Translations under genes and position numbers: made by a program
NCBI GenBank assembly: GCA_963736875.1
Contig: CAVTQH010000002.1
Coordinates: 270,663-334,662 of the forward strand
Length of the DNA stretch: 64,000 bases
Direction: 5' to 3'
Source: Candidatus Amesbacteria bacterium
GTDB taxonomy: Bacteria > Patescibacteriota > Microgenomatia > CAZETR01 > Amesbacteraceae
Notes under the pieces: generated by a model
Database searches by the model: none
Told to the model about the DNA's origin: nothing
The model's input: the letters and a program-made list of their open reading frames with translations, nothing else
Part shown: positions 9,288 through 18,567 of the stretch, in pieces
Numbering within the stretch: the first letter of the stretch is position 1
Layout of the letters: every line of letters starts with the position of its first letter

Positions 9288-9405
9288 AACTTGAATTTTT
9301 TCATCATTTATCAATTATTTTTTGGAACTCTCTTTCATTTGTTTGCTGGGAGTTTGCCTGCCCGCTTTTGCAGGGAAACGATATTAGAACTTTATAACAT
9401 CAATT

Positions 9406-9843
9406 CTAAAATTTCCCTTGTTTGACTAACTTGATTGACGAAGGACCTTTTTGAATTTTAAGGATTAAATTATCACCTTTTAAAGCATCTTTGACTCTTT
9501 CTAATTGTTTTGAAGAAATGTTATGAGGAATATTCATTAATTCAAAGTACTCTATTTTATCAGCCTCTTCGGTTAGAGTAATTTTTCCACCGATCGGTTC
9601 ACAAATAAAACAAAAGACAAGGTCGTCTTTCTCCGGTTTATAATAAATTCCCTGTAATCTGACAATTTTGACATCCAAACATACTTCTTCTTTAACTTCC
9701 CTGATAACCCCTTCCCAAGGTGATTCGCCTTTTTTCACGCCGCCTCCCGGCAAATTCCATAGGTCATAATCTCTCCTATGACACAAAAGCACCCTGCTTT
9801 GCTTATCAAGTATTATTGCGAAGGCCCCAACAGTAAACATCAT
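9406..9843 (-). CDS. NUDIX hydrolase
   Basis: Nudix box 'GGGVKKGESPWEGVIREVKEEVCL'. Confidence 0.8.
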   Translation of the reverse strand: MMFTVGAFAIILDKQSRVLLCHRRDYDLWNLPGGGVKKGESPWEGVIREVKEEVCLDVKIVRLQGIYYKPEKDDLVFCFICEPIGGKITLTEEADKIEYFELMNIPHNISSKQLERVKDALKGDNLILKIQKGPSSIKLVKQGKF

Positions 9844-9862
9844 CCTATTTTAACAAAATCTT

Positions 9863-9895
9863 TATCTGAGCGTACAGGTCTGGAACCATTCTGCC
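9863..9895. repeat. Intergenic repeat copy a (TTGCTGAGC-N-CTGGAACCATTCTATCC family)
   Basis: 'atctgagcgtacaggtctggaaccattctgcc', 20 nt upstream of the NUDIX start. Matches copies b-f. Confidence 0.6.
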
Positions 9896-10018
9896 GTACC
9901 ATTTTAATCCTAAACCTGTCGAAGGACGGAAGTCACTATTTTAGGGATTATTATCAACGGGTTCTCTTTAGCATCTTTTGCTTAGAAGTTCTGCGTTAAT
10001 TGACTTAGACGGAAGAGT

Positions 10019-11137
10019 ATGGTTACAATGGGCTTGGTGGCAAAAAGAAGTGGAAGAGTAATATCTCACGTTAACTTTCTCGTTTTTTCTTTAGTTGTGT
10101 TAGTTGGTGGGCTCGTAGCCAGCACAATCTTGGTAAGTAAAAATCAACAGCTAAATAGTCAGGCACAGGATGTTACAAGGCTTACCAACGCTGTTTGGTG
10201 GCAGTATTTACCAGTCAAATATAATTCAGCGTGTTCTTACCCAGACAAACCTGCCCCCGATAATTATCAGGCTGTTCATCCCTCCGTACTTTACTTTCCC
10301 GGAGGGTGGAAGGGATATAAATTTTGGATGTCTGTATCTCCTTTTCCTAATCTTGACCCAAAGTGTGAACACCCTCATGTATTTGCCTCCAATACAGGAA
10401 GATACAAAGATTGGATTCAGCCGACAGGTAATCCTGTAGTTCCTAGTGTAGATCCCTACGCTTACGAATACAGCGATGCAGATCTGGTGATGGTCGGGGA
10501 TAAAATGTATATGTTCTATCGTAAAAACACCAAAAACGGACCGGGATATGAAGACGATGACACCGAGTTGTATAAAATATCCCTTTGTTCAACATGTAAT
10601 AGTTGGAGCCCCCCCGAGGCTGTTAAACTTACTAATGTACCTGGGGATCCAATTACTACTGATGCTTATAAAGTTAAACCTAGCGGAATATTTGCCTCTC
10701 CTTCCATTTTGTATGAGAATAATGTCTGGAGAATGTATTATGTCGATACGAAAGCCAAGATAGTAAGATATGCGTCTAGTAGCGATGGGAAAGAGTTCAC
10801 GTGGCAGAGGAACATTTCCGTGAATTATTACCCGCAAGATCCTTGGCACGTCGAAGTCTTCAAGTATAAAACCAGGTACTTTATGCTACTAAACCAGAAC
10901 ATAGAAACAACCAACTCGAATTTGTATCTGCTTACAAACGATAATACGGCAAGTTGGACCAATAAGGGGCCGATATTGTCGCCATCGGCGAATGCATGGG
11001 ATAAATCGGATATTTATCGAGCGTCAGCAGTTGTAGTAGATAATCAATTAATGTTGTGGTATTCGGGTTTTATAGGAAATAATGTGCACACTGGCCTCAT
11101 CAACGACTCCACATGGAATAATTGGTGGTACCGCTAA
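10019..11137 (+). CDS. Secreted beta-propeller glycoside-hydrolase-like protein (GH43/GH32/GH130 superfamily-like)
   Basis: N-terminal TM anchor. Repeated blade-like segments such as 'WRMYYVD' and 'DKSDIYRASAVVVDNQLMLWYSG'. Flanked by repeat copies a and b and opposite in strand to the array. Confidence 0.45.
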   Translation: MVTMGLVAKRSGRVISHVNFLVFSLVVLVGGLVASTILVSKNQQLNSQAQDVTRLTNAVWWQYLPVKYNSACSYPDKPAPDNYQAVHPSVLYFPGGWKGYKFWMSVSPFPNLDPKCEHPHVFASNTGRYKDWIQPTGNPVVPSVDPYAYEYSDADLVMVGDKMYMFYRKNTKNGPGYEDDDTELYKISLCSTCNSWSPPEAVKLTNVPGDPITTDAYKVKPSGIFASPSILYENNVWRMYYVDTKAKIVRYASSSDGKEFTWQRNISVNYYPQDPWHVEVFKYKTRYFMLLNQNIETTNSNLYLLTNDNTASWTNKGPILSPSANAWDKSDIYRASAVVVDNQLMLWYSGFIGNNVHTGLINDSTWNNWWYR

Positions 11138-11186
11138 GAATGTAAATTACAGGTCCGCGAAAAACTGAAGGGGTTGCGAATAAAAT

Positions 11187-11220
11187 TTGCTGAGCATACC
11201 GCTCTAGAACCATTCTATCC
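11187..11220. repeat. Intergenic repeat copy b
   Basis: 'ttgctgagcataccgctctagaaccattctatcc', 105 nt 3' of the methyltransferase stop. Confidence 0.65.
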
Positions 11221-11329
11221 TTTAGTCCGCAGGACGTGAATCTAACGATTGTCTCACAACAAGGCCAAACCTACCTACCGGCAGGCAGGTGAGACAAATG
11301 AGATGATACTAGAAGTAAACAGTGTAGAT

Positions 11330-12097
11330 CTACAATTTTCGACATTTAAAAATGAACCTATCTGAAAAATTAATAAAAAAGGGAAGTTTGCTTAAACAGA
11401 ATGAATTCTTATCTCCGTTCCTATTTATTCTAACTCCGTTACCCATGACTTTAATATCACTGTAGCCGGCGTATTTTAGAGTTGTCAGAAGCGAATGAAT
11501 AGAAAAAAAAGAAATATGCCCCGATGCGACATCCGTTAACGGGCGCGTGGTTTGATAAGACTCTCCCATGCCTGTTAAAAGCCCGATAACGTCATGAATT
11601 TGAGCAATATTTGGAACTGACCCCAGAAAATATCCACCATGCTTGATTAAAGGATTTATGACCTTTTTAATAAATACCCCAGGGGTTCTGATATGTTCCA
11701 GAATTTCAGCTGCAACAACAAAATCGGCTTTTGGAAGTTTATCAATTTTATCCAGGTCTTTTTCAACGTCCACTGAGATGACTCTATCAAAACACTGCCT
11801 GTCTAATCCAACCTGCAACACCTCCAAAGAAACATCGATTCCAATTTTATATAAATTCGCCAAAGATTTAACTTGATTTTCCAATTCACCCTCTCCGCAA
11901 CCTAAATTAATCATTATCATTTTTTTGTTTATGCTTTTATCAACAATTTCTCGAATAATTTCAGAAATAAGCGTAAGCCTCTTTTTATGAAGTTTGTTAT
12001 CGAGATAACTATATACTTTATTGTTTTGTTTTTTGAATAATATTGCCTCGAAATGTTTTTCAGGCTGTCCATAAACTTCGGGTTTTATGATTGACAT
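11330..12097 (-). CDS. Class I SAM-dependent methyltransferase
   Basis: Motif I 'MINLGCGEGELE'. Post-I acidic residue. 'AAEILEHI' motif. Confidence 0.75.
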   Translation of the reverse strand: MSIIKPEVYGQPEKHFEAILFKKQNNKVYSYLDNKLHKKRLTLISEIIREIVDKSINKKMIMINLGCGEGELENQVKSLANLYKIGIDVSLEVLQVGLDRQCFDRVISVDVEKDLDKIDKLPKADFVVAAEILEHIRTPGVFIKKVINPLIKHGGYFLGSVPNIAQIHDVIGLLTGMGESYQTTRPLTDVASGHISFFSIHSLLTTLKYAGYSDIKVMGNGVRINRNGDKNSFCLSKLPFFINFSDRFIFKCRKL

Positions 12098-12281
12098 AAA
12101 ATTATTGTTCAGTAGCTCAACTAACCAGTCGTAACCATACCAAAAGGTAGAGATAAATTTGATATCTATTATATATATCTTTCCTATTTTTTCTGGGGGA
12201 CTAGTTGTCTTTCGCTAAGTTTAGGATCACCACGGAACACGACCACATAATGGCATGCAATTCCGAAAGCTTGGCGAAGGA

Positions 12282-12315
12282 TTGCTGAGCAGTACGATCT
12301 GGAACCATTTTATCC
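12282..12315. repeat. Intergenic repeat copy c
   Basis: 'ttgctgagcagtacgatctggaaccattttatcc', directly abutting the ASCH-gene stop codon (TAA on minus). Confidence 0.65.
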
Positions 12316-12657
12316 TTATATTCTTTTCTCAACTTCTATTGCTACTACACCATACTGTTTTTCTTGTTCAGGAGTATAGAATTGTCTATACACTCTAATT
12401 CCTTGATAAATTGAATCTACGTCCGGTAATAACTCTTTAATAGATTCACTGGTTAGCATGTCTTTAATCGATTTATATATTGTTACCCTTTTTACTACGG
12501 TCTCTACACTATCTGTTTCTTTGTTATCATAAACGGTAATTTGATCTCCAGGCTTGATATTGCGATACTTACCTTTTCTTATCCTTGCCTCGACAGTTTT
12601 CTGCCCATTCTTAAGTAAGGTGAAATACGGTTCTGCTCTATGATTGTGGTAATTCAT
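12316..12657 (-). CDS. ASCH (PUA-like) domain protein
   Basis: 'PYFTLLKNGQKTVEARIRKGKY' matches the ASCH N-terminal motif. 113 aa. Confidence 0.6.
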   Translation of the reverse strand: MNYHNHRAEPYFTLLKNGQKTVEARIRKGKYRNIKPGDQITVYDNKETDSVETVVKRVTIYKSIKDMLTSESIKELLPDVDSIYQGIRVYRQFYTPEQEKQYGVVAIEVEKRI

Positions 12658-12662
12658 AAAAG

Positions 12663-12696
12663 TTGCTGAGCGGGCCGGTCTGGGACCCTCCTATCC
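12663..12696. repeat. Intergenic repeat copy d
   Basis: 'ttgctgagcgggccggtctgggaccctcctatcc' occupies the entire 39-nt spacer between the GNAT stop and the ASCH start. Confidence 0.65.
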
Positions 12697-13134
12697 TTAT
12701 AGTTTCTTAATAAAATATGATTTTTCTCCCTCAGTTTTATATTCAGTGAAACCGTTATCTAAAACAAATTTATACATACCTGGGAATTTTACTTTGTAAG
12801 TATTTAGAGTCAGTTGATCAAACATTTTCTCCTTTGCAAATTTTTCTATTTCCTCATACATCATTTTCCAAATTCCAAACTTCCGATATTCTTTTAATAC
12901 CCCAACATTCCAAATATGAAATTTCCCTTCTTTTGGATAACAGATAGAAAATCCCACCATCTTTTTGTCATCCCAGGCATTAACTAACAAACCGCCGCTA
13001 TTTATCTTATTCAACCAATCATTTTTGTCGTGATATTTTTGGAGCTCTTCTGGAGACGGCTCAAATACTTGATTTGACACTTCTAAAGCTTTTTCTAACT
13101 CTTTTAGTTGGTTTATGTGTAATGTGATATTCAT
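12697..13134 (-). CDS. GNAT family N-acetyltransferase (longer ORF to 13161 overlaps the repeat; start at MNITLH preferred)
   Basis: Motif A 'VGVLKEYRKFGIWKMMYEEIEKFAKE'. Confidence 0.7.
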   Translation of the reverse strand: MNITLHINQLKELEKALEVSNQVFEPSPEELQKYHDKNDWLNKINSGGLLVNAWDDKKMVGFSICYPKEGKFHIWNVGVLKEYRKFGIWKMMYEEIEKFAKEKMFDQLTLNTYKVKFPGMYKFVLDNGFTEYKTEGEKSYFIKKL

Positions 13135-13168
13135 CTGCTGAACATGTCGGTCTTGAACCATTCGATCC
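13135..13168. repeat. Intergenic repeat copy e
   Basis: 'ctgctgaacatgtcggtcttgaaccattcgatcc', between the LOG-like stop and the GNAT start. Confidence 0.65.
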
Positions 13169-13176
13169 CATAACCT

Positions 13177-13710
13177 CTACAAATATTTCTCAAGTTCTCT
13201 AATAGAATTAAAAAACTCTATTTTGGATTTTTCCTTGTGTCCTTCTTTTAGAAATTCCTTAATTGTTTTATTAGTAATCCCACCAGATGCTTCTAAAACA
13301 TAAATGTCTTTAGCGATGCCAGCCATAATCGTTATTTCGTACATAGTACCAACTCGTCCACCAATAACAATTGCCATATCGACATCAAAACATAGTTTCA
13401 GAGATCGGAGGTATAGATCAATTTTAGAAAAATTGTTACAGACGTATTTTTCTTGGAAAATTACCTCTGAGTATTTAGATAAATCTGTTTGGTAAAATTT
13501 CTTGTGATCTTCAAGATTTTTACCCGCACAGTAGGCTATAGCTTTGCCGCCTGAAGAAATGGCTGAGACGGCAACTAAGTCCGGGTAACCAGAAACACCC
13601 CCAGTAACGATGATGTGTCCTTTTAAAGCAAGTAATCTACCTAATTCTTGAGATTTTTTAAAAAAATCTCCATTGTCAGGATTACTTGATCCGATGATGG
13701 CTATTTTCAT
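13177..13710 (-). CDS. LOG/TIGR00725-family Rossmann protein (SLOG-like; lysine-decarboxylase-like)
   Basis: 'IAIIGSS' N-terminus and 'IGGRVGTMYEI', corresponding to LOG 'GGxGTxxE'. Confidence 0.6.
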   Translation of the reverse strand: MKIAIIGSSNPDNGDFFKKSQELGRLLALKGHIIVTGGVSGYPDLVAVSAISSGGKAIAYCAGKNLEDHKKFYQTDLSKYSEVIFQEKYVCNNFSKIDLYLRSLKLCFDVDMAIVIGGRVGTMYEITIMAGIAKDIYVLEASGGITNKTIKEFLKEGHKEKSKIEFFNSIRELEKYL

Positions 13711-13730
13711 AAATTTAATTATAGTTTAAT

Positions 13731-13764
13731 TTGCTGAGCACCACAGCCTCGAACCGTTCTAGCC
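13731..13764. repeat. Intergenic repeat copy f
   Basis: 'ttgctgagcaccacagcctcgaaccgttctagcc', 20 nt upstream of the LOG-like start and 50 nt past the MazG-like stop. A degenerate seventh copy may lie at ~14228-14260. Confidence 0.6.
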
Positions 13765-13814
13765 CATAACTAATTTAATATACGGATCAAGGATTTTTCC
13801 ACTTTGACTATTTA

Positions 13815-14168
13815 TTAAACTCCCTTAGTGCGAAGGTATTCGCTGGCGTCTCTTAAGGCTTTGAAGTGGGCGTCTTCCAAATCAATCTCGTACAAATCTG
13901 CAATTCGCATGACCATAAATAAAATATCAGCTAATTCATCCCCAATTTTTTCTTTGTTTGCCTGATATTTAGGATTGTCTTTGTCTCGACATGCAGGGTA
14001 ATAACCCTCTTGCACCATCACCAATGAAGAAAGATCACCAATCTGCTTACTTAGTTCAATCATCGACCCATCCACACCCCATTGCTTACCTTCTATTTTT
14101 TCGAACCTTTTAATTATCGCTCTTGCCTTATTAACCGCTTCCTCAAATGTAGTTTTATTCATATTCAT
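13815..14168 (-). CDS. MazG-like nucleotide pyrophosphohydrolase (all-alpha NTP-PPase)
   Basis: 'EKIGDELADILFMVMRIADLYEIDLE' is the typical EExxE/D metal-binding helix pair of the MazG/HisE family. Confidence 0.7.
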   Translation of the reverse strand: MNMNKTTFEEAVNKARAIIKRFEKIEGKQWGVDGSMIELSKQIGDLSSLVMVQEGYYPACRDKDNPKYQANKEKIGDELADILFMVMRIADLYEIDLEDAHFKALRDASEYLRTKGV

Positions 14169-14305
14169 AGCTTAACATAATCTTGAATTGTATGGCTGGC
14201 GCTTTATCGAAAAATCCGAACGTCAATCTGCTAGCTCACCCGCCGCGCCTCCGTTATTTTTTTGCGCGCGCAAAGTGACGGGACAGCACAAAAAAGCCAA
14301 TGCCA

Positions 14306-14367: not shown

Positions 14368-15042
14368 ATGTCTAACGTTAATTATGGAAATAGGGGGTTG
14401 CTTATCGCAGTAGAGGGTGTTGATGGTGCCGGTAAATCAACTTTGATCAAAGCTTTAAGCAGTCACTTACAGAGTAAGGGGATATCAAACGCAGTATTTA
14501 AGAATCATGTTGGGTTAGAATCACCATTTTGGGCATCATATAAAAAAAGCAGGGAACAACTTAAAAATAATGGGGTTAAAATTTCAAGCGATGCAGCAAG
14601 AACTATACAAACTGCTGAATTTTTGTCATTTGCCAGAAACGTTTTACCGGGATTGTTGAGCACTCATAGAGTTGTTCTTGCAGATAGATACATGGTAGCT
14701 AAAAGAGTTGATTCCCGGGTAAGCCTAGAAGGTAATGTCGGTTCTGCAGAAATATTACTTAATGTAGCCGACGATATTTATTTACCGGATCAGATTTTTT
14801 ACCTTAGAGTTCCGGCAAAAACAGCCTGGAAAAGAATATCGAATAAAGAAATAAAAGACTGGAAAGAGAATTATGAAATTATTTCAAAAGCAGTGGTTTA
14901 TTATGACCAAATTGTTTCAACAATTCCTGACGTGGAAATTATAAACGCAGATAAAGATGAAAAAAACGTTTTTAATGTAGCTATTACTGTTTTTTGGGAC
15001 AAGTTTTCTCGCCAGTTAGAGATTATGAAAAAGACTCTCTAG
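14368..15042 (+). CDS. Thymidylate-kinase-like (dNMP kinase family) P-loop protein, divergent
   Basis: P-loop 'IAVEGVDGAGKSTL' and 'VLADRYMVA' (Tmk DRY motif). The lid region is atypical. Confidence 0.55.
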   Translation: MSNVNYGNRGLLIAVEGVDGAGKSTLIKALSSHLQSKGISNAVFKNHVGLESPFWASYKKSREQLKNNGVKISSDAARTIQTAEFLSFARNVLPGLLSTHRVVLADRYMVAKRVDSRVSLEGNVGSAEILLNVADDIYLPDQIFYLRVPAKTAWKRISNKEIKDWKENYEIISKAVVYYDQIVSTIPDVEIINADKDEKNVFNVAITVFWDKFSRQLEIMKKTL

Positions 15043-15687
15043 GGTCAGGTTGTCTTTAATACTGATTCGAGACAGCCTCTTACTTTTCGCATAATAACTC
15101 AAAAACAAATCCGAATTTGGGGTGTCTCTTAACTGAAGTGCGGTCAATAGCCGCATCTTTTCCCTAGGCAGAATCGTTTTAAAATTCTCGAGAAAATAGC
15201 TTTTTAGGTATAGTAACGATTGGACTCCGTTAGCATAGTCTTGCTTAAATAATCGAACACTGTAAGTTGCGAGTATATTCTCTAAGCTGAAATATCGTTT
15301 ATAGACTTCTCTTATATCATATTCGAATTGTTGATATATGACATGATCATTTCTGACAAGAAAAGGAAAAATGTCTACGAAATATTCTCCACCCGGTCCT
15401 AAAAAGTTATTCGGATTGGAATCCAATCCGTATTTATCAAACGTTAATGATTTAATTCGGTTTACAATGTGTCCTGAAAATAAGATTGGTTTTTCAGCAA
15501 TTCGTTCCTGATTTATGACAATGTATCCGTCTTGGAAAGTTAGGTCTGTTTGAGGTGTTCGAAAACCTGCAGTTTCTAACCATTTAAAATAATATGGTAA
15601 ATGTACAGATATATATTTAAATAAATATTTTGTGGCCTCAACCTTTTTTACAAATCTATTTTTATTGACTGAAACATCACACCTCAT
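15016..15687 (-). CDS. Hypothetical protein, last gene of the 4-gene overlapping operon
   Basis: 223 aa. Start overlaps the nucleotidyltransferase stop by 4 nt. No motif recognised. Confidence 0.4.
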   Translation of the reverse strand: MRCDVSVNKNRFVKKVEATKYLFKYISVHLPYYFKWLETAGFRTPQTDLTFQDGYIVINQERIAEKPILFSGHIVNRIKSLTFDKYGLDSNPNNFLGPGGEYFVDIFPFLVRNDHVIYQQFEYDIREVYKRYFSLENILATYSVRLFKQDYANGVQSLLYLKSYFLENFKTILPREKMRLLTALQLRDTPNSDLFLSYYAKSKRLSRISIKDNLTLESLFHNL

Positions 15688-16706
15688 AGTAAATCAATAG
15701 GAATTAAGTAATGATCGTTGTTTTGCATAAATAGAAAATCACCATGATTGACTGTTACCTTAGTGCCTCTGAATAAGTATGTATTTCCAAACACGTGGTT
15801 ATCATCACCCATCCCTTGATGCGCCCATGAGAAGCTAATAGCATTCAGGTGCTTATCACCCATAACAAGATCCCATGTTTTTGGGAAATTATAACAATCA
15901 GCTGCCGATAGTACCTGGCATTCACTCACAACTTCTTCAATTTTCCAATCCTGATGCATACCACTAAGGAAGTCTCTTATAGGGGTATCGTTATGGTCGA
16001 TGTTTAAACATTGTAAGCTTGTAGATACACCTTCCGGACTGATCCACCTCATTCTTTTGTTAGCAAGGTACCGGCCGGCTAGAACGGGGATGTTGAACTT
16101 TCTGGAATAATGAACAGCGTATTCAGCGTCTTTACCCGTCTCTTTTGTAGTCACGTACCCGCTACTAATAAAGGTTTCATTTACAAGATCCAAAAAGTCC
16201 GTCTTTTGTGTTGGTTTAACCCAAGCGATCAAATCCAAATCCGAGTCGACCGAATTCAATCCCGCTTGGTGAGAACCATAAACTCCAAGGTTGTAGTCTC
16301 CTGCAAAATCAGCCTTCAATAATTTTTCTTTAATACCGTTGGCTAATCGTTTAGAGGCGGAAGAAATAGCGGTATTGGATTCATAGTAAGTTGAATACCA
16401 TACATATTCCTGATTGTCTTGTAGAAACAAGAGAGGCTTATTGTAAACATCAATAAGTAATTCGCCGATTTCAACAAAACTATTTCGTGACACGTCCTCG
16501 TGAATCAGTCTGTTTCGTCGGTATATTTTACGGTCAATACCCGATACACGATTTCCGTTCTCATCAAGGGAATAACTCCGGTTTACGGGTAGAATTGATC
16601 CTTGTTGTGTATGCAATCTGTAGGCACCTTTAAGATGGTAAATGTTTCCGTTAGGGGATTTTATGGCAGAAAACTCTGGAAAAGGTGAAATCTCATACTC
16701 CGTCAT
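15684..16706 (-). CDS. Pol-beta superfamily nucleotidyltransferase (ANT/KNTase/MenT/CD-NTase-like) with large C-terminal domain
   Basis: 'GVYGSHQAGLNSVDSDLDLIAW' fits the GS-x9-11-DxD minimal nucleotidyltransferase motif. 340 aa. Overlaps both neighbours. Confidence 0.6.
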   Translation of the reverse strand: MTEYEISPFPEFSAIKSPNGNIYHLKGAYRLHTQQGSILPVNRSYSLDENGNRVSGIDRKIYRRNRLIHEDVSRNSFVEIGELLIDVYNKPLLFLQDNQEYVWYSTYYESNTAISSASKRLANGIKEKLLKADFAGDYNLGVYGSHQAGLNSVDSDLDLIAWVKPTQKTDFLDLVNETFISSGYVTTKETGKDAEYAVHYSRKFNIPVLAGRYLANKRMRWISPEGVSTSLQCLNIDHNDTPIRDFLSGMHQDWKIEEVVSECQVLSAADCYNFPKTWDLVMGDKHLNAISFSWAHQGMGDDNHVFGNTYLFRGTKVTVNHGDFLFMQNNDHYLIPIDLL

Positions 16707-17665
16707 ATTACGATTCTTCTCCCCAAATAATGGGGCAGAATCAATTGATATTCTTCGTCTTTAAAAAACAATTTGAAAAGATAGTTACTATCTTCTCCAT
16801 CAACATTTATAGGAGAAATATGTTGCAAAATTACTTGTTTGACTTGAGATTTTTTGAAAATATCTAATATATCCCATCCACTGAGATGATATTTTGAGTG
16901 CTTGTTGTATTCCAGTGCATTAATGTTCACGACGGCTAAATCTGCATTCTTAAAGAAATCTGCAATGTATTGGTGTTTTTCTTCTATTGATATTAAGTTA
17001 CCAATTGTCTCGTTAGAGTTGAAAACTCCTGTGTCGGTTTTGATTTTAATTGCGTATCCCGAATCGGATACATAACCTATAATCTTTTTGTTTACTTCTA
17101 ATTTAAAGCCAAATGTATCAGGACAACTGTGAAATAGTGATAAGAAACTAATCTTGTACTCACTTAGGATTTTATCGTTATAAACCATCTGTGAATCGGA
17201 AAGTAAATTCAATGTAACATGCTTGGCATTAGAAAGAGCTGTTTTATAGTAATCCGGAACTTTAGTATCGAAAGCGTCCTTGGAACTAAATACTGTAATT
17301 TCTTTCGATTTATTTTTTAGAATTTTTTCTAAAAAGATTTGTAGAGAAGCAGTATGGTCAATGTGATTATGAGTTATTATCAGCACCCGGATATCGTTAA
17401 CGGATAAACCTGTTGATGTAAACCTGGAATAGAAATCAACCCCGGGATCGACTACTATAAGTTTTCCTTTTAAATTTATGATGTAACCATTGAAATACCA
17501 TTGATCAATTTGCAGTTCAAGCGAAGTTTCAAATAATAATTTAGGTATTATTATTTCGTGTCCGGATATTTTCTCCGTTATCTTCCCAGACTTAAAAGAT
17601 TCCTTTAAAATCTGCTCTTTCTTATACAAACCCCTTGAAATTATGATTAAATTATTCTTGTCCAT
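16703..17665 (-). CDS. Metallo-beta-lactamase-fold hydrolase
   Basis: 'LIITHNHIDH' (HxHxDH), upstream 'VVDPG' Asp and downstream His/Asp motifs. 320 aa. Confidence 0.65.
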   Translation of the reverse strand: MDKNNLIIISRGLYKKEQILKESFKSGKITEKISGHEIIIPKLLFETSLELQIDQWYFNGYIINLKGKLIVVDPGVDFYSRFTSTGLSVNDIRVLIITHNHIDHTASLQIFLEKILKNKSKEITVFSSKDAFDTKVPDYYKTALSNAKHVTLNLLSDSQMVYNDKILSEYKISFLSLFHSCPDTFGFKLEVNKKIIGYVSDSGYAIKIKTDTGVFNSNETIGNLISIEEKHQYIADFFKNADLAVVNINALEYNKHSKYHLSGWDILDIFKKSQVKQVILQHISPINVDGEDSNYLFKLFFKDEEYQLILPHYLGRRIVI

Positions 17666-18254
17666 TATTCTCCAACTTCTTAGTTAAAAGGTAATCCAAG
17701 TGTAACACAACATTCCTATAAGTATTACTTATTTTAGCCTCATTATTTATTAGTATATATTTTTTATTAGCCTCGTATGTAATGTGTTTCAATTTATTAA
17801 TTGTTAGGACCCGATTAAAGTGGGTTTTTGATTTATTCCCTCTTTTTATAGCCAGAGATGGTTTGATTTCAAGAATTACTCCCCCAAGCACCTTAGGATT
17901 GTTAAACAATCTGTGGGTATTCACCTGGACACCGTCGATTATGATATTAACCCCGGAATTGGTATATGAATTTATAATAATTTCTATTAACCCCATAAAT
18001 ATATCAGACGATTTCTTTCCTTCAAAATTTTCTAATTCTGTTGAGTTAATATCCGGTCGAAAAAAACGCACCATTTTACTTGCCACTCCCAAGTTAATTG
18101 ACTGATAGAAGTTATAATCACGAATTAATTTTCTCGTGATGGTCGTTTTTCCTGAGGAATTATTTCCTGTTACAACGAAGATAGCCGGTTTACCTAGTCT
18201 ATTAAGTTGTTTAATCTTTCCGTTGATATTTATCACCAATGACCATTTTATCAC
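17652..18254 (-). CDS. P-loop kinase, chloramphenicol-phosphotransferase/zeta-toxin/AAA_33-like (GTG start)
   Basis: Walker A 'VVTGNNSSGKTTITRKL'. 'NIIIDGV' Walker-B-like strand. About 200 aa. First gene of the overlapping operon. Confidence 0.55.
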   Translation of the reverse strand: MIKWSLVININGKIKQLNRLGKPAIFVVTGNNSSGKTTITRKLIRDYNFYQSINLGVASKMVRFFRPDINSTELENFEGKKSSDIFMGLIEIIINSYTNSGVNIIIDGVQVNTHRLFNNPKVLGGVILEIKPSLAIKRGNKSKTHFNRVLTINKLKHITYEANKKYILINNEAKISNTYRNVVLHLDYLLTKKLENNGQE

Positions 18255-18496
18255 AAGACCTATAGTTCGTCTAGAGTTTCTATATCCTCACCCACCCGGA
18301 ATTAAATTTGTGGCGACGACCCCATCCTCGTTCGCAGGGTTCCCTAGGGGGACCCTCGCCAAAGTCCGGGACGATCTAGGTTCTTTTTACAATCCCTTCC
18401 GGAGTAATGGGTAGTTTAGTTAGTCAGCTCCCTGCGGCGGGGTGTCCGCTTTCCACCCCCGCCTTCTTTATTCTTGCCCCATCCAGTACCCTACGG
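18255..18496 (-). ncRNA. GC-rich structured non-coding region between tRNA-Gln and the kinase operon (candidate leader/riboswitch/sRNA; identity unknown)
   Basis: About 60 % GC, flanked by ~33 % GC genes. Strong hairpins 'GGCGGGGGTGgaaagcggaCACCCCGCC' and 'AGGGTCCCCCTAGGGAACCCT'. No ORF. Confidence 0.2.
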
Positions 18497-18567
18497 CTGG
18501 GGGACAGGGATTCGAACCCCGATAGTCAGGTCCAGAACCTGAAGTCCTACCGTTAGACGATCCCCCA
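18497..18567 (-). tRNA. tRNA-Gln (anticodon CUG)
   Basis: Minus-strand cloverleaf: acceptor UGGGGGA/UCCCCCA (U1:A72 as in tRNA-Gln), anticodon loop UUCUGGA, T-arm CGGGGUUCGAAUCCCUG. No encoded CCA. Confidence 0.8.

Follow-up and report, generated by a model that had tools for sequence, protein, structure and literature searches.

What are the repeats that follow small, unrelated enzyme genes, one after another, in a 64-kb stretch of DNA (hereafter, the window)? A preliminary description, made from sequence alone, had taken them for the joints of a cassette array, recombined at sites other than attC by an enzyme encoded elsewhere. We asked how far this idea holds in the window, in other genomes, and against rival explanations.

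The repeated element and its genes

The window contains six same-strand copies of the element, all within 9862-13771, and none in the remaining 60 kb. On the plus strand, their CTGAGC core starts at 9865, 11190, 12285, 12666, 13138, and 13734. No chance match is expected for the strict consensus. A relaxed 14-base core gives 8 matches against 3.2 expected; six are the copies, and the other two are chance matches with 3 mismatches, away from the array. Likewise, a profile made from >100 copies and scanned over the 64 kb found no additional copy at E<0.4. The conserved unit is 41 nt long, is not palindromic, and reads GnTTATGGGATnGAAAGGTTCTAGACCGnCCTGCTCAGCAA on the gene (minus) strand. Copy b is a long form of ~120 nt. 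The stop codons upstream of copies c and d directly adjoin them and fall inside the 41-nt definition; copy d occupies its entire 39-nt spacer. The coordinates are given in Table 1.

These results bear on several claims of the preliminary description. Its six copies held, and so did its spacing claims (copies abutting stops, one of them filling a 39-nt spacer). The repeat length of ~34 nt was too short. A seventh copy suspected at ~14228 failed, as the sequence there does not align to the element. Pfam confirmed the gene calls for NUDIX, methyltransferase, ASCH, GNAT, and SLOG/LOG-like proteins, and MazG only weakly. The inverted gene, described as a beta-propeller hydrolase, received weak support: its 372-aa product has a weak resemblance to GH130-type beta-propeller enzymes.

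The tRNA-Gln gene of the window lies on the same strand as the array, 4.7 kb upstream of copy f. Between them (13.8 to 18.5 kb), the profile search recognized no element. The MazG-like gene may belong to the array; its membership is uncertain because there is no element upstream of it. The window also encodes a T2SS protein F family member. It is a pilus/secretion platform protein of the kind used by type IV pili and competence.

Table 1. Coordinates of the array, its elements, and the proposed anchor in the window.
Feature	Position	Strand	Evidence and remarks
Possible degenerate terminal element after the NUDIX stop	9341-9398	-	GTTATAAAGTTCTAATATCG ... CCCAGCAAAC; inspection only; undetected by profile search
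NUDIX gene	9406-9843 (region 9341..9861)	-	Pfam
Inverted-gene cassette	9862..11186	-	3' element a 9862-9902; gene 10019-11137 on +
Element b	core 11187-11227; to ~11305	-	Sequence; long-form boxes TCTCATTTGTCTCA, GTGAGACAATCG reach ~11305
SAM-methyltransferase cassette	11187..12281	-	Gene 11330-12097 + long-form element b; Pfam
ASCH cassette	12282..12662	-	Gene 12316-12657 + 3' element c 12282-12322; stop codon within element; Pfam
GNAT cassette	12663..13134	-	Gene 12697-13134 + 3' element d 12663-12703; stop codon within element; Pfam
SLOG/LOG-like cassette	13135..13730	-	Gene 13177-13710 + 3' element e 13135-13175; Pfam LDcluster4
Element f	13731..13771	-	41 nt; sequence alignment + profile search
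MazG-like gene	13815..14168	-	Weak Pfam MazG match; directly upstream of copy f
tRNA-Gln(CTG) gene	18495..18567	-	ARAGORN, Rfam, sequence; proposed array anchor

Distribution of the element and anchoring at tRNA-Gln

The motif search in relatives, which the preliminary description had proposed, recovers the element, often in arrays. We counted ~130 copies in 82 low-GC CPR contigs (loci). Within an array all copies point the same way; their median spacing is 809 bp, and the largest count is 12 copies in 12.6 kb. At least 120 metagenome contigs carry the element. Element-bearing contigs come from groundwater, soil, and sediment samples and belong to several candidate orders. All 20 element loci that contain a tRNA-Gln gene have it upstream on the element's strand, as does the window. 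Apart from it, the tRNAs of element loci are limited to Glu and Lys, and there are none in the 313 kb of control loci. The arrays of L153 and L157, found independently by protein search, also sit behind tRNA-Gln. The array structure and its anchoring on the 3' side of tRNA-Gln are shown.

The element is strongly conserved across genera, and its short 41-nt form has ~70% pairwise identity. About one fifth of the copies are lengthened to ~140 nt. This long form is 90-97% identical across ~100 nt between unrelated cassettes. Decayed copies occur near the tRNA in L153. By inspection, the long form contains a plausible promoter, TTGTCT-N15-TGA-TACACT.

Over its last 25 nt, the element is arranged like the T-loop and acceptor 3' end of tRNA-Gln. 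More precisely, GGTTCnAGACC-N7-CTCAGCAA in the element corresponds to GGTTCGAATCC-N7-CGCAGCAA in the tRNA, and both share a terminal CAGC(A)A. About 15 of the 25 positions are identical to tRNA-Gln, against ~13 of 25 for other tRNAs. The element is not a copy of the resident tRNA; a genuine partial tRNA-Gln copy (20 nt) was observed in one case, L030.

Cassette exchange and boundaries

A cassette comprises the 41-nt element and, before it, usually a single gene but occasionally two or three, of either orientation. The same cargo can follow either a tRNA end or an element. It stands after the tRNA-Gln 3' end in L038, L054, and L157, and after the 20-nt partial tRNA-Gln in L030; counterpart cargo in L113, L098, L054b/L140, and L097 is preceded by the element instead. 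In these cases the homology begins 0-3 nt past CAGC, and the joint maps to ...GCTCAGC|(A/C)A. Conservation of the site does not extend past +8, and the sequence right of the joint is not conserved. A site conserved on only one side of its joint is unusual for tyrosine and serine recombinases.

For cassettes in differing contexts, homology ends at the element 3' end. Elements downstream of the cargo travel with it, sharing 32.0 of 41 positions (n=12). Those upstream of it do not: they share 27.7 of 41 (n=7), against 28.9 +/- 3.4 for random pairs. The SLOG cassette of the window recurs at 82-87% identity in two further tRNA-Gln arrays, with protein identities of 87% and 84%, and has different neighbours in each of the three. 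Its DNA homology runs from window position 13780 to 13134, where it stops at the element 3' end. The comparison of cassette order suggested in the preliminary description gave homologous cargo in differing gene orders, with homology ending at the element. Reshuffling at the level of cassettes, with precise homology boundaries, is shown. Neither circular cassette contigs nor presence/absence variants inside one population were found.

Cargo of the arrays

The 140 flanking proteins represent 135 Pfam families, chiefly methyltransferases, NUDIX, GNAT, and hydrolases. The first three had been named as typical cassette cargo. The diversity of this repertoire is comparable to that of integron cassettes. 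About 76% of the flanking genes are co-directional with the element. Of 75 cases, 28 have the cargo stop codon within the first 12 nt of the element. The window, L023, and L090 each hold inverted cargo flanked by elements of one orientation, and elements also precede the 3' ends of antisense genes.

Structure and expression signals

Folding found no conserved secondary structure of the element on either strand, and no attC-like hairpin. RNAalifold gave only a 4-bp hairpin, without covariation. The MFE z-scores of 103 copies with their flanks were ~-0.4 (sense) and ~-0.1 (antisense), like shuffled sequence, and the long form had z = -0.7. No Rfam family matched the element, tRNA-like elements included. 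Between 9300 and 14450, a scan for sigma-70 promoters and intrinsic terminators returned 17 promoter-like sites (16 expected) and no terminator. With folding, Rfam, and signal scans null, we rejected the readings of the element as a structured RNA, promoter, or terminator; these results favour a site in DNA over one in RNA. The RNA-processing alternative raised earlier is likewise unsupported, since there is no conserved structure on either strand.

Search for a recombinase

No integrase was found by Pfam among 40 window ORFs, so the earlier statement that the window lacks one held for the ORFs tested. A motif scan (tyrosine box II and serine motifs) of ~460 kb detected no recombinase, and there was no recombinase gene among the 140 flanking proteins or in any of the 82 chromosomal loci. 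The preliminary description had advised looking for one within ~20 kb; none is linked to any chromosomal array.

Phage-like contigs provided candidates. One phage-like IMG/VR contig carries an exact tandem repeat of 9,117 bp, and each unit has a single complete long form with its core; on phage-like contigs the long form sits in divergent intergenic regions. All four viral contigs with the exact long-form motif (4/4) also encode a serine recombinase family. Its members are ~430 aa, have the Resolvase-Recombinase-Zn-ribbon composition, are carried on phage-like elements, and occur CPR-wide. Three other viral contigs with this family, whose DNA was examined, have motif-like sites with 2-3 mismatches. 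Of 18 tRNAs close to a recombinase gene of this family, 17 converge with it, three of them being tRNA-Gln. L157/L158, and perhaps L033, have recombinase fragments close to tRNA-Gln. The named members of the family are mostly from other CPR classes. In L162/L163, contigs that also have the long-form motif, the recombinase gene is broken into two ORFs in all contig reads examined.

A probable cassette array on the tRNA-Gln 3' side

On balance, we favour reading the repeats as the joints of a gene-cassette array that forms 3' of tRNA-Gln in Microgenomatia (CPR) through site-specific recombination by an enzyme acting in trans. The main idea of the preliminary description is supported; the recombination reaction itself is inferred, not shown. 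In this model, a recombinase encoded elsewhere would use the element and the genuine tRNA-Gln 3' end interchangeably as left half-sites. Circular cassettes would insert at either of them and be joined exactly past the shared CAGC, and arrays would grow, shuffle, and be exchanged between genomes. The tRNA end would correspond to an integron attI and the element to attC. In phage terms, the element would be an attP/attR-type joint, that is, a P arm plus core. The candidate enzyme would be the CPR-wide ~430-aa serine recombinase family, and this is the weakest step. Several points weigh against the model: no chromosomal array has a linked recombinase, the site is one-sided, its match to tRNA-Gln is only slightly better than to other tRNAs, neither circular cassettes nor variants within a population were found, 4.7 kb separate array and tRNA in the window, and the candidate family is named mostly from other CPR classes, with a split gene in L162/L163. 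Circular intermediates, the reaction, and the identity of the enzyme are all inferred, and none is shown.

A bolder reading is tempting, although we hold it with less than even confidence. Microgenomatia would possess an undescribed gene-capture system that fills the role of an integron but is made of unrelated components. Its docking site would be the tRNA-Gln 3' end, its cassette site a linear 41-nt mimic of this end without a hairpin, and its recombinase would act in trans, possibly as a phage-borne serine integrase directed at tRNA ends.

Alternative explanations

One rival remains possible. The element could be an expression signal or a phage-derived regulatory block (e.g., a promoter/operator plus leader for the next gene), with cassettes shuffled by homologous recombination after DNA uptake, the elements serving as homology patches, and no dedicated recombinase. 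It is favoured by the lack of an array-linked recombinase, the ~76% of flanking genes in the element's direction, and the position of the long form in divergent intergenic regions, with a plausible promoter by inspection. The long form, 90-97% identical over ~100 nt, would also suffice for RecA, and the T2SS protein F family member of the window is a type IV pili/competence-type component. However, boundaries are fixed past CAGC and not spread across the element, which travels with the upstream and not the downstream gene. The tRNA-Gln end can substitute for the element, and arrays occur only behind tRNA-Gln. Moreover, the ~70% identical 41-nt short form is poor homology for RecA, sigma-70-like sites are not in excess, and 3' ends of antisense genes also follow elements. 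Less convincing is a history of scars. Many larger integrase-bearing elements (prophages, satellites, tycheposon-like islands) would have integrated independently at tRNA-Gln and lost all but the att-adjacent gene, leaving the repeats as inactive att sites. The tRNA anchoring, the classical 20-nt partial tRNA copy of L030, the decayed copies in L153, the long form plus core on the 9.1-kb phage-like unit, and the recombinase fragments in L157/L158 and possibly L033 speak for it, and tycheposons are known for successive integrations separated by partial tRNAs. Nevertheless, we consider it unlikely. The cassettes are uniformly tiny (median spacing 809 bp), 28 of 75 cargo stop codons lie inside the first 12 nt of the element, and one single-gene cassette is intact in different arrays. 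Neutral scars should decay, whereas the element is strongly conserved across genera, and it is not a copy of the resident tRNA.

The two remaining rivals have little support. An RNA-level signal (processing, stability, or tRNA-like punctuation) dividing one long transcript into mRNAs for single genes would fit the sense orientation to most flanking genes, the tRNA-end-like layout, and the tight fit between stop and start codons. It is very improbable given the 4-bp hairpin without covariation, the shuffled-like energies, and the absence of an Rfam match, and it leaves tRNA-Gln anchoring, inverted cargo, and reshuffling unexplained. Finally, a true integron array (CALIN-type attC cluster) or a genome-wide REP/MITE repeat can be practically discarded. 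The layout and cargo types are cassette-like, but there is no attC hairpin, no R'/R'' box at the joint, and no IntI gene. The ordinary-repeat alternative (REP or terminator) of the preliminary description finds no support within the window either: the copies are clustered, all 6 lying within 4 kb and none in the remaining 60 kb, and are not palindromic.

Possible implications for gene flux in CPR bacteria

CPR/Patescibacteria have tiny genomes, and their gene gain and exchange are poorly understood. If the cassette-array reading is true, a widespread tRNA-Gln cassette system would be a concrete mechanism of CPR gene flux. It would be a second, independent answer to the integron problem, and so a convergent architecture. 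On the bolder reading, bacteria with reduced genomes and apparently few plasmids would have a common pool of single-gene cassettes. The short primary-sequence site, possibly with a matching recombinase, is directly testable and maybe useful as a tool. The 41-nt consensus is a simple probe to harvest the cassette gene pool of uncultivated bacteria from metagenomes.

Comparison with known systems

Integron cassette arrays, including integrase-less attC clusters (CALIN), have been surveyed with IntegronFinder (PMC4889954), and attC structure is described in PMC2727003. As in the arrays reported here, their cassettes are compact, mainly single-gene, and mainly in one orientation, with occasional inverted cargo. 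Their recombination site is at the cassette 3' end and may overlap the stop codon. They also share diverse small-enzyme cargo, the same cassette in differing orders across genomes, and one favoured insertion point at the array head. However, attC is an imperfect hairpin conserved in structure, whereas the element is linear, 41 nt, and conserved in primary sequence. The integron joint is G|TTRRRY (R', with the complementary R'' RYYYAAC) and not ...CAGC|AA. The integron head is attI beside intI and Pc, in contrast to a tRNA-Gln 3' end, and its tyrosine integrase is linked, unlike here.

Tycheposons of Prochlorococcus are tRNA-anchored additive islands formed by successive integrations (bioRxiv 10.1101/2020.12.28.424599), and tDNA islands in general are treated in Islander (PMC4383910). 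They resemble our arrays in having flexible genes directly 3' of one specific tRNA, tRNA-end-like repeats between successive insertions, and the involvement of phage-satellite-related elements. Conversely, the units here are single genes of 0.3-1.5 kb without integrase or replication module; an integrase per element, typical of tycheposons, is absent by the 140 flanking proteins and the motif scan. The separator is a family-wide consensus differing from the resident tRNA and not a copy of it, insertion occurs after the tRNA 3' end and not inside the gene, and the suspected enzyme is a serine and not a tyrosine recombinase.

The pdif (Xer) modules of Acinetobacter plasmids are bounded by 28-bp XerC/XerD sites in alternating orientation, and CIMEs are kilobase-scale ICE remnants formed by att-site accretion. 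Both share with our arrays small recombinase-less gene modules, short bounding recombination sites, and an enzyme elsewhere. Nevertheless, they are not known to have a tRNA-Gln anchor or a tRNA-end-like site.

Known sites of serine integrases show approximate symmetry about a central dinucleotide, and integration destroys them. The element has no two inverted half-sites around such a dinucleotide, and it is one-sided and reusable, unlike the att sites of those enzymes; no activity is shown. The likeness to attP/attB systems lies in the Resolvase-Recombinase-Zn-ribbon family on the long-form phage-like contigs, with genes against tRNA 3' ends. In L191, 114 nt separate the end of the recombinase gene from the 3' end of tRNA-Gln.

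Element copies and genes in the window

The preliminary description reported six copies of the repeat (here called the element, copies a to f) at the ends of consecutive small genes. All six were found at those joints, and the strict consensus then proposed has 0 expected chance matches. The conserved unit on the gene (minus) strand is 41 nt long: GnTTATGGGATnGAAAGGTTCTAGACCGnCCTGCTCAGCAA. A profile built from more than 100 element copies was run over the whole 64 kb and gave no copy beyond the six. The degenerate seventh copy, suggested as possible near 14228, does not align to the element and was rejected. This place is a GC-rich stretch in the spacer from which the MazG-like gene and tmk diverge, and it is unrelated to the element.

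Pfam backs the NUDIX, SAM-MTase, ASCH, GNAT and SLOG/LOG-like gene calls of that description. The MazG call has weak support, and the inverted 372-aa gene, called a beta-propeller hydrolase, weakly resembles GH130-type propeller enzymes. The stop codon of the upstream gene falls within copies c and d. Copy d occupies the entire intergenic spacer, as had been claimed. A single other assembly of this array was found, identical to the window.

Coordinates of the element copies and related features (L-numbers denote loci gathered from other genomes, metagenomes or IMG/VR)
Feature	Sequence	Position	Strand	Remark
Array, copies a-f	window	9862-13771	+	
Copy a, CTGAGC core start	window	9865	+	
Copy b, CTGAGC core start	window	11190	+	long form
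Copy c, CTGAGC core start	window	12285	+	
Copy d, CTGAGC core start	window	12666	+	
Copy e, CTGAGC core start	window	13138	+	
Copy f, CTGAGC core start	window	13734	+	
SLOG cassette homology with L153	window	13780 to 13134		ends at the element's 3' end
GC-rich stretch	window	14228-14280		rejected as seventh copy
Four overlapping genes	window	15016-18254	minus	between tRNA-Gln and array
tRNA-Gln(CTG)	window	18495-18567	minus	4.7 kb upstream of copy f
Region with exact 20-nt copy of tRNA-Gln 3' end	L030	432-545		95 nt downstream of tRNA
Decayed element copies	L153	6380-6420, 8955-8990		between tRNA-Gln and first intact element
GIY-YIG cassette gene	L001	1894-2205		
GIY-YIG cassette gene	L157	2596-2868		
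GIY-YIG cassette gene	L097	6794-7072		
High-GC gene family	L045	2585-2634		chance match to search pattern

Distribution and layout of the arrays

The profile search of all fetched sequence gave 130 copies in 82 low-GC loci (median GC 37%). In a scan of representative genomes, true copies occur in MAGs named Daviesbacteria, Gottesmanbacteria, Woesebacteria, Microgenomatus and 'Patescibacteria group'. Five low-GC records titled 'uncultured Gammaproteobacteria' (L003, L023, L025, L026 and L031) also carry copies. They combine the CPR element with CPR-like gene content, and their titles are probably wrong. A metagenome scan matched at least 120 contigs. Three high-GC loci were excluded from the counts, as chance pattern matches within a protein-coding gene. 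This gene family, seen in L045 and related soil contigs, ends in ...ERFETSKLSNLR and the stop, and its DNA fits the search pattern by chance.

Arrays are common, and the orientation of their copies is always uniform. Up to 12 copies lie within 12.6 kb in L090, and 4 within 4.5 kb in L098; the overall median spacing between copies is 809 bp. About 76% of the flanking genes share the direction of the element. The stop codon of the upstream gene lies within the first 12 nt of the element in 28 of 75 cases, and antisense genes can also abut its 3' end.

Cassettes as units of exchange

A local all-against-all comparison showed homologous cargo in different loci. The homologous DNA stretches from one element to the next and breaks off at the element's 3' end. 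Where cargo is homologous, the downstream elements are alike at 32.0 of 41 positions (n=12), the upstream ones at 27.7 of 41 (n=7), and random element pairs at 28.9 +/- 3.4 of 41. The downstream elements are more alike than the upstream ones; therefore, the cassette consists of the cargo plus its own 3' element.

Cargo that stands behind the 3' end of a genuine tRNA-Gln (or behind an exact 20-nt piece of it) in one genome can stand behind an element in another. We found four independent cases: L038 with L113, L054 with L098, L030 with L054b/L140, and L157 with L097 (tRNA-end context first). In these pairs, the homology starts 0-3 nt after CAGC.

Homologues of the window SLOG protein, 87% and 84% identical to it, are encoded in two other arrays that follow a tRNA-Gln (L153 and L157). 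The neighbours of SLOG are MazG and GNAT in the window, a 247-aa and a 593-aa protein in L153, and an IS and an NMN-transporter fragment in L157. The preliminary description proposed comparing cassette order across relatives, and took identical gene order without repeats as a refutation. The opposite was observed: the cassettes are reshuffled, and SLOG has different neighbours.

The cargo is highly varied: Pfam finds 135 families among the 140 flanking proteins. The commonest are methyltransferases, NUDIX, GNAT, alpha/beta hydrolases and GIY-YIG. Genes for GIY-YIG nucleases of about 90 aa recur as cassettes (L001, L157, L097, L093 and L103), and in two loci they directly adjoin tRNA-Gln.

Anchoring at tRNA-Gln

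The arrays are anchored at tRNA-Gln. This tRNA is present in 20 of 84 element-bearing loci. In each of these, its gene is upstream of the elements and on their strand, and the distance to the first copy is usually 24-1,400 nt. Besides Gln, element loci contain only tRNAs for Glu and Lys, which cluster with it. Control loci (313 kb) contained no tRNA of any kind. The tRNA-Gln of the window fits the pattern, and the profile search found no further element copies between it and the array. In L033 and L060, the gene directly upstream of tRNA-Gln encodes a 231-aa HTH protein that could not be assigned to a family.

The last 25 nt of the element are in register with the T-loop, T-stem and acceptor 3' strand of tRNA-Gln, and CAGC(A)A terminates both. 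The resemblance in sequence is modest: this 3' end matches tRNA-Gln at about 15 of 25 positions, and other tRNAs at about 13 of 25. Only L030 was found to repeat part of its own tRNA-Gln exactly, downstream of the tRNA gene. There, the copied 3' end (GAATCCAAGTCCCGCAGCAT) is directly followed by a cassette ORF, whose ATG overlaps the last two bases of the copy. We consider it a classical att duplication at the array site. In L153, one decayed copy is without GCTCAGCAA, and the other retains the long-form box only. It is likely that arrays erode near the tRNA in this genome.

Nature of the element and comparison with known systems

Folding tests of either strand ruled out an attC-type hairpin, in the short form as well as in the long form. 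The 41-nt unit has a single 4-bp stem without covariation (RNAalifold). The folding energy of the element with its flanks equals that of shuffled sequence (z -0.4 and -0.1 for the two strands, 103 copies), and the long form has no conserved fold. Rfam matched no family in the window, in 16 related loci, or permissively, even at E = 10. In the array region, no terminator-like sites were found, and sigma-70 promoter-like sites occur in chance number only, without enrichment. The element is therefore neither an attC nor a structured RNA, and it is no ordinary promoter or terminator. Another candidate was an antisense protein-coding fragment. In the window and in all related copies, the antisense strand reads [FLIV]AE[HQR]xGLEPFxP[IY][TNS]. 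The copies vary mainly at every third base, in some positions four-fold and in others between purines. However, this frame is never inside a long ORF (median 10 aa upstream and 21 aa downstream, 128 copies), and the wobble positions are compatible with a sense frame too. We dropped this explanation; the 3-nt periodicity is left unexplained.

Of the readings considered, a tRNA-Gln-anchored cassette array has the best support, and the balance of evidence tips modestly towards it. The structure of the array, its anchoring and the reshuffling rest on what was observed; the reaction and the enzyme are inferred. A trans-acting recombinase would make no distinction between the element and the tRNA-Gln 3' end as sites, and would join DNA just after CAGC. 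The element is conserved on one side of the joint only, and no circular cassette contigs were found.

Integrons have a similar way of working. Nevertheless, the array fails integron membership because it has no attC hairpin, no G|TTRRRY joint and no IntI (attC features from PMC2727003 and PMC4889954). The first proposal, an integron-like array whose repeat does not match attC, is supported. Tycheposons and other tRNA-anchored additive islands are also anchored at a tRNA, and tycheposons have partial tRNAs between successive insertions. In contrast, each unit here is one gene and brings no integrase, and what separates the units follows a consensus shared by the whole family instead of copying the resident tRNA. 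A search of the full-text literature gave no description of such arrays in CPR.

Search for a recombinase

Pfam showed no recombinase in 40 window ORFs, which agrees, for the ORFs tested, with the earlier remark that the window has no integrase. Neither did it show one in 140 flanking proteins, 10 large flanking proteins, or 10 proteins upstream of tRNA-Gln. A recombinase motif scan of about 460 kb gave none.

In L162 and L163, a Resolvase-Recombinase-Zn-ribbon serine recombinase lies 1.8 kb from the long-form motif, split into two ORFs in the contigs examined. All four viral contigs with the long-form motif encode relatives of it. Three further viral contigs with this family have motif-like sites (2-3 mismatches), with 0.02 expected by estimate. 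The family is large, and its named members are mostly from CPR lineages. The Woesebacteria locus L157 has, 2 kb upstream of tRNA-Gln, a fragment that shares 45% identity with the family.

The 60 scanned viral loci of the family contain 18 tRNA genes, of which 17 converge on the recombinase gene. The tRNAs facing it (IMG/VR loci L166-L226) are Ser, Gln (three times), Glu, Asp, Trp and Arg. In L191, 114 nt separate the end of the gene for a 428-aa recombinase from the tRNA-Gln 3' end. The way these genes face tRNA genes suggests that the family consists of serine integrases targeting tRNA ends. The link between the serine recombinase and the element is circumstantial and remains a possibility.

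The long form and phage-like contigs

About a fifth of the copies, window copy b included, have a conserved upstream extension of about 100 nt. Its boxes are TATATCAAACTATATCA .. TTGAGACA .. CCCTTTTTATACTGTCTCATTTGTCTCATTTAGCCTCA .. GTGATACACT, and it holds an inverted TGAGACA/TGTCTCA pair and a direct TATATCA pair. Because it has no conserved fold, the long form resembles a set of protein-binding boxes.

The element core pattern gave a single chance match on IMG/VR viral contigs, in a high-GC phage. The long-form core motif occurs in four IMG/VR contigs. One of them, L165 (UViG_3300020195_001307), consists of a 9,117-bp unit repeated exactly in tandem. The genes of the unit include those of terminase-like, ParB-methylase, DNA methylase, ribonucleotide reductase, PfkB and NUDIX type. 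Each unit contains one complete long form and a core variant. By its appearance, L165 is probably a small phage-like or satellite element that formed a concatemer or integrated in tandem.

Genes between tRNA-Gln and the window array

The four genes in this interval have overlapping stops and starts. They encode a CPT-like kinase, an MBL-fold protein with an Anti-Pycsar Apyc1 Pfam match, and two unknowns. They might form an insert, anti-defence or related to defence, that shares its hotspot with the array. An Apyc1-like gene is also found downstream of tRNA-Gln in L153.
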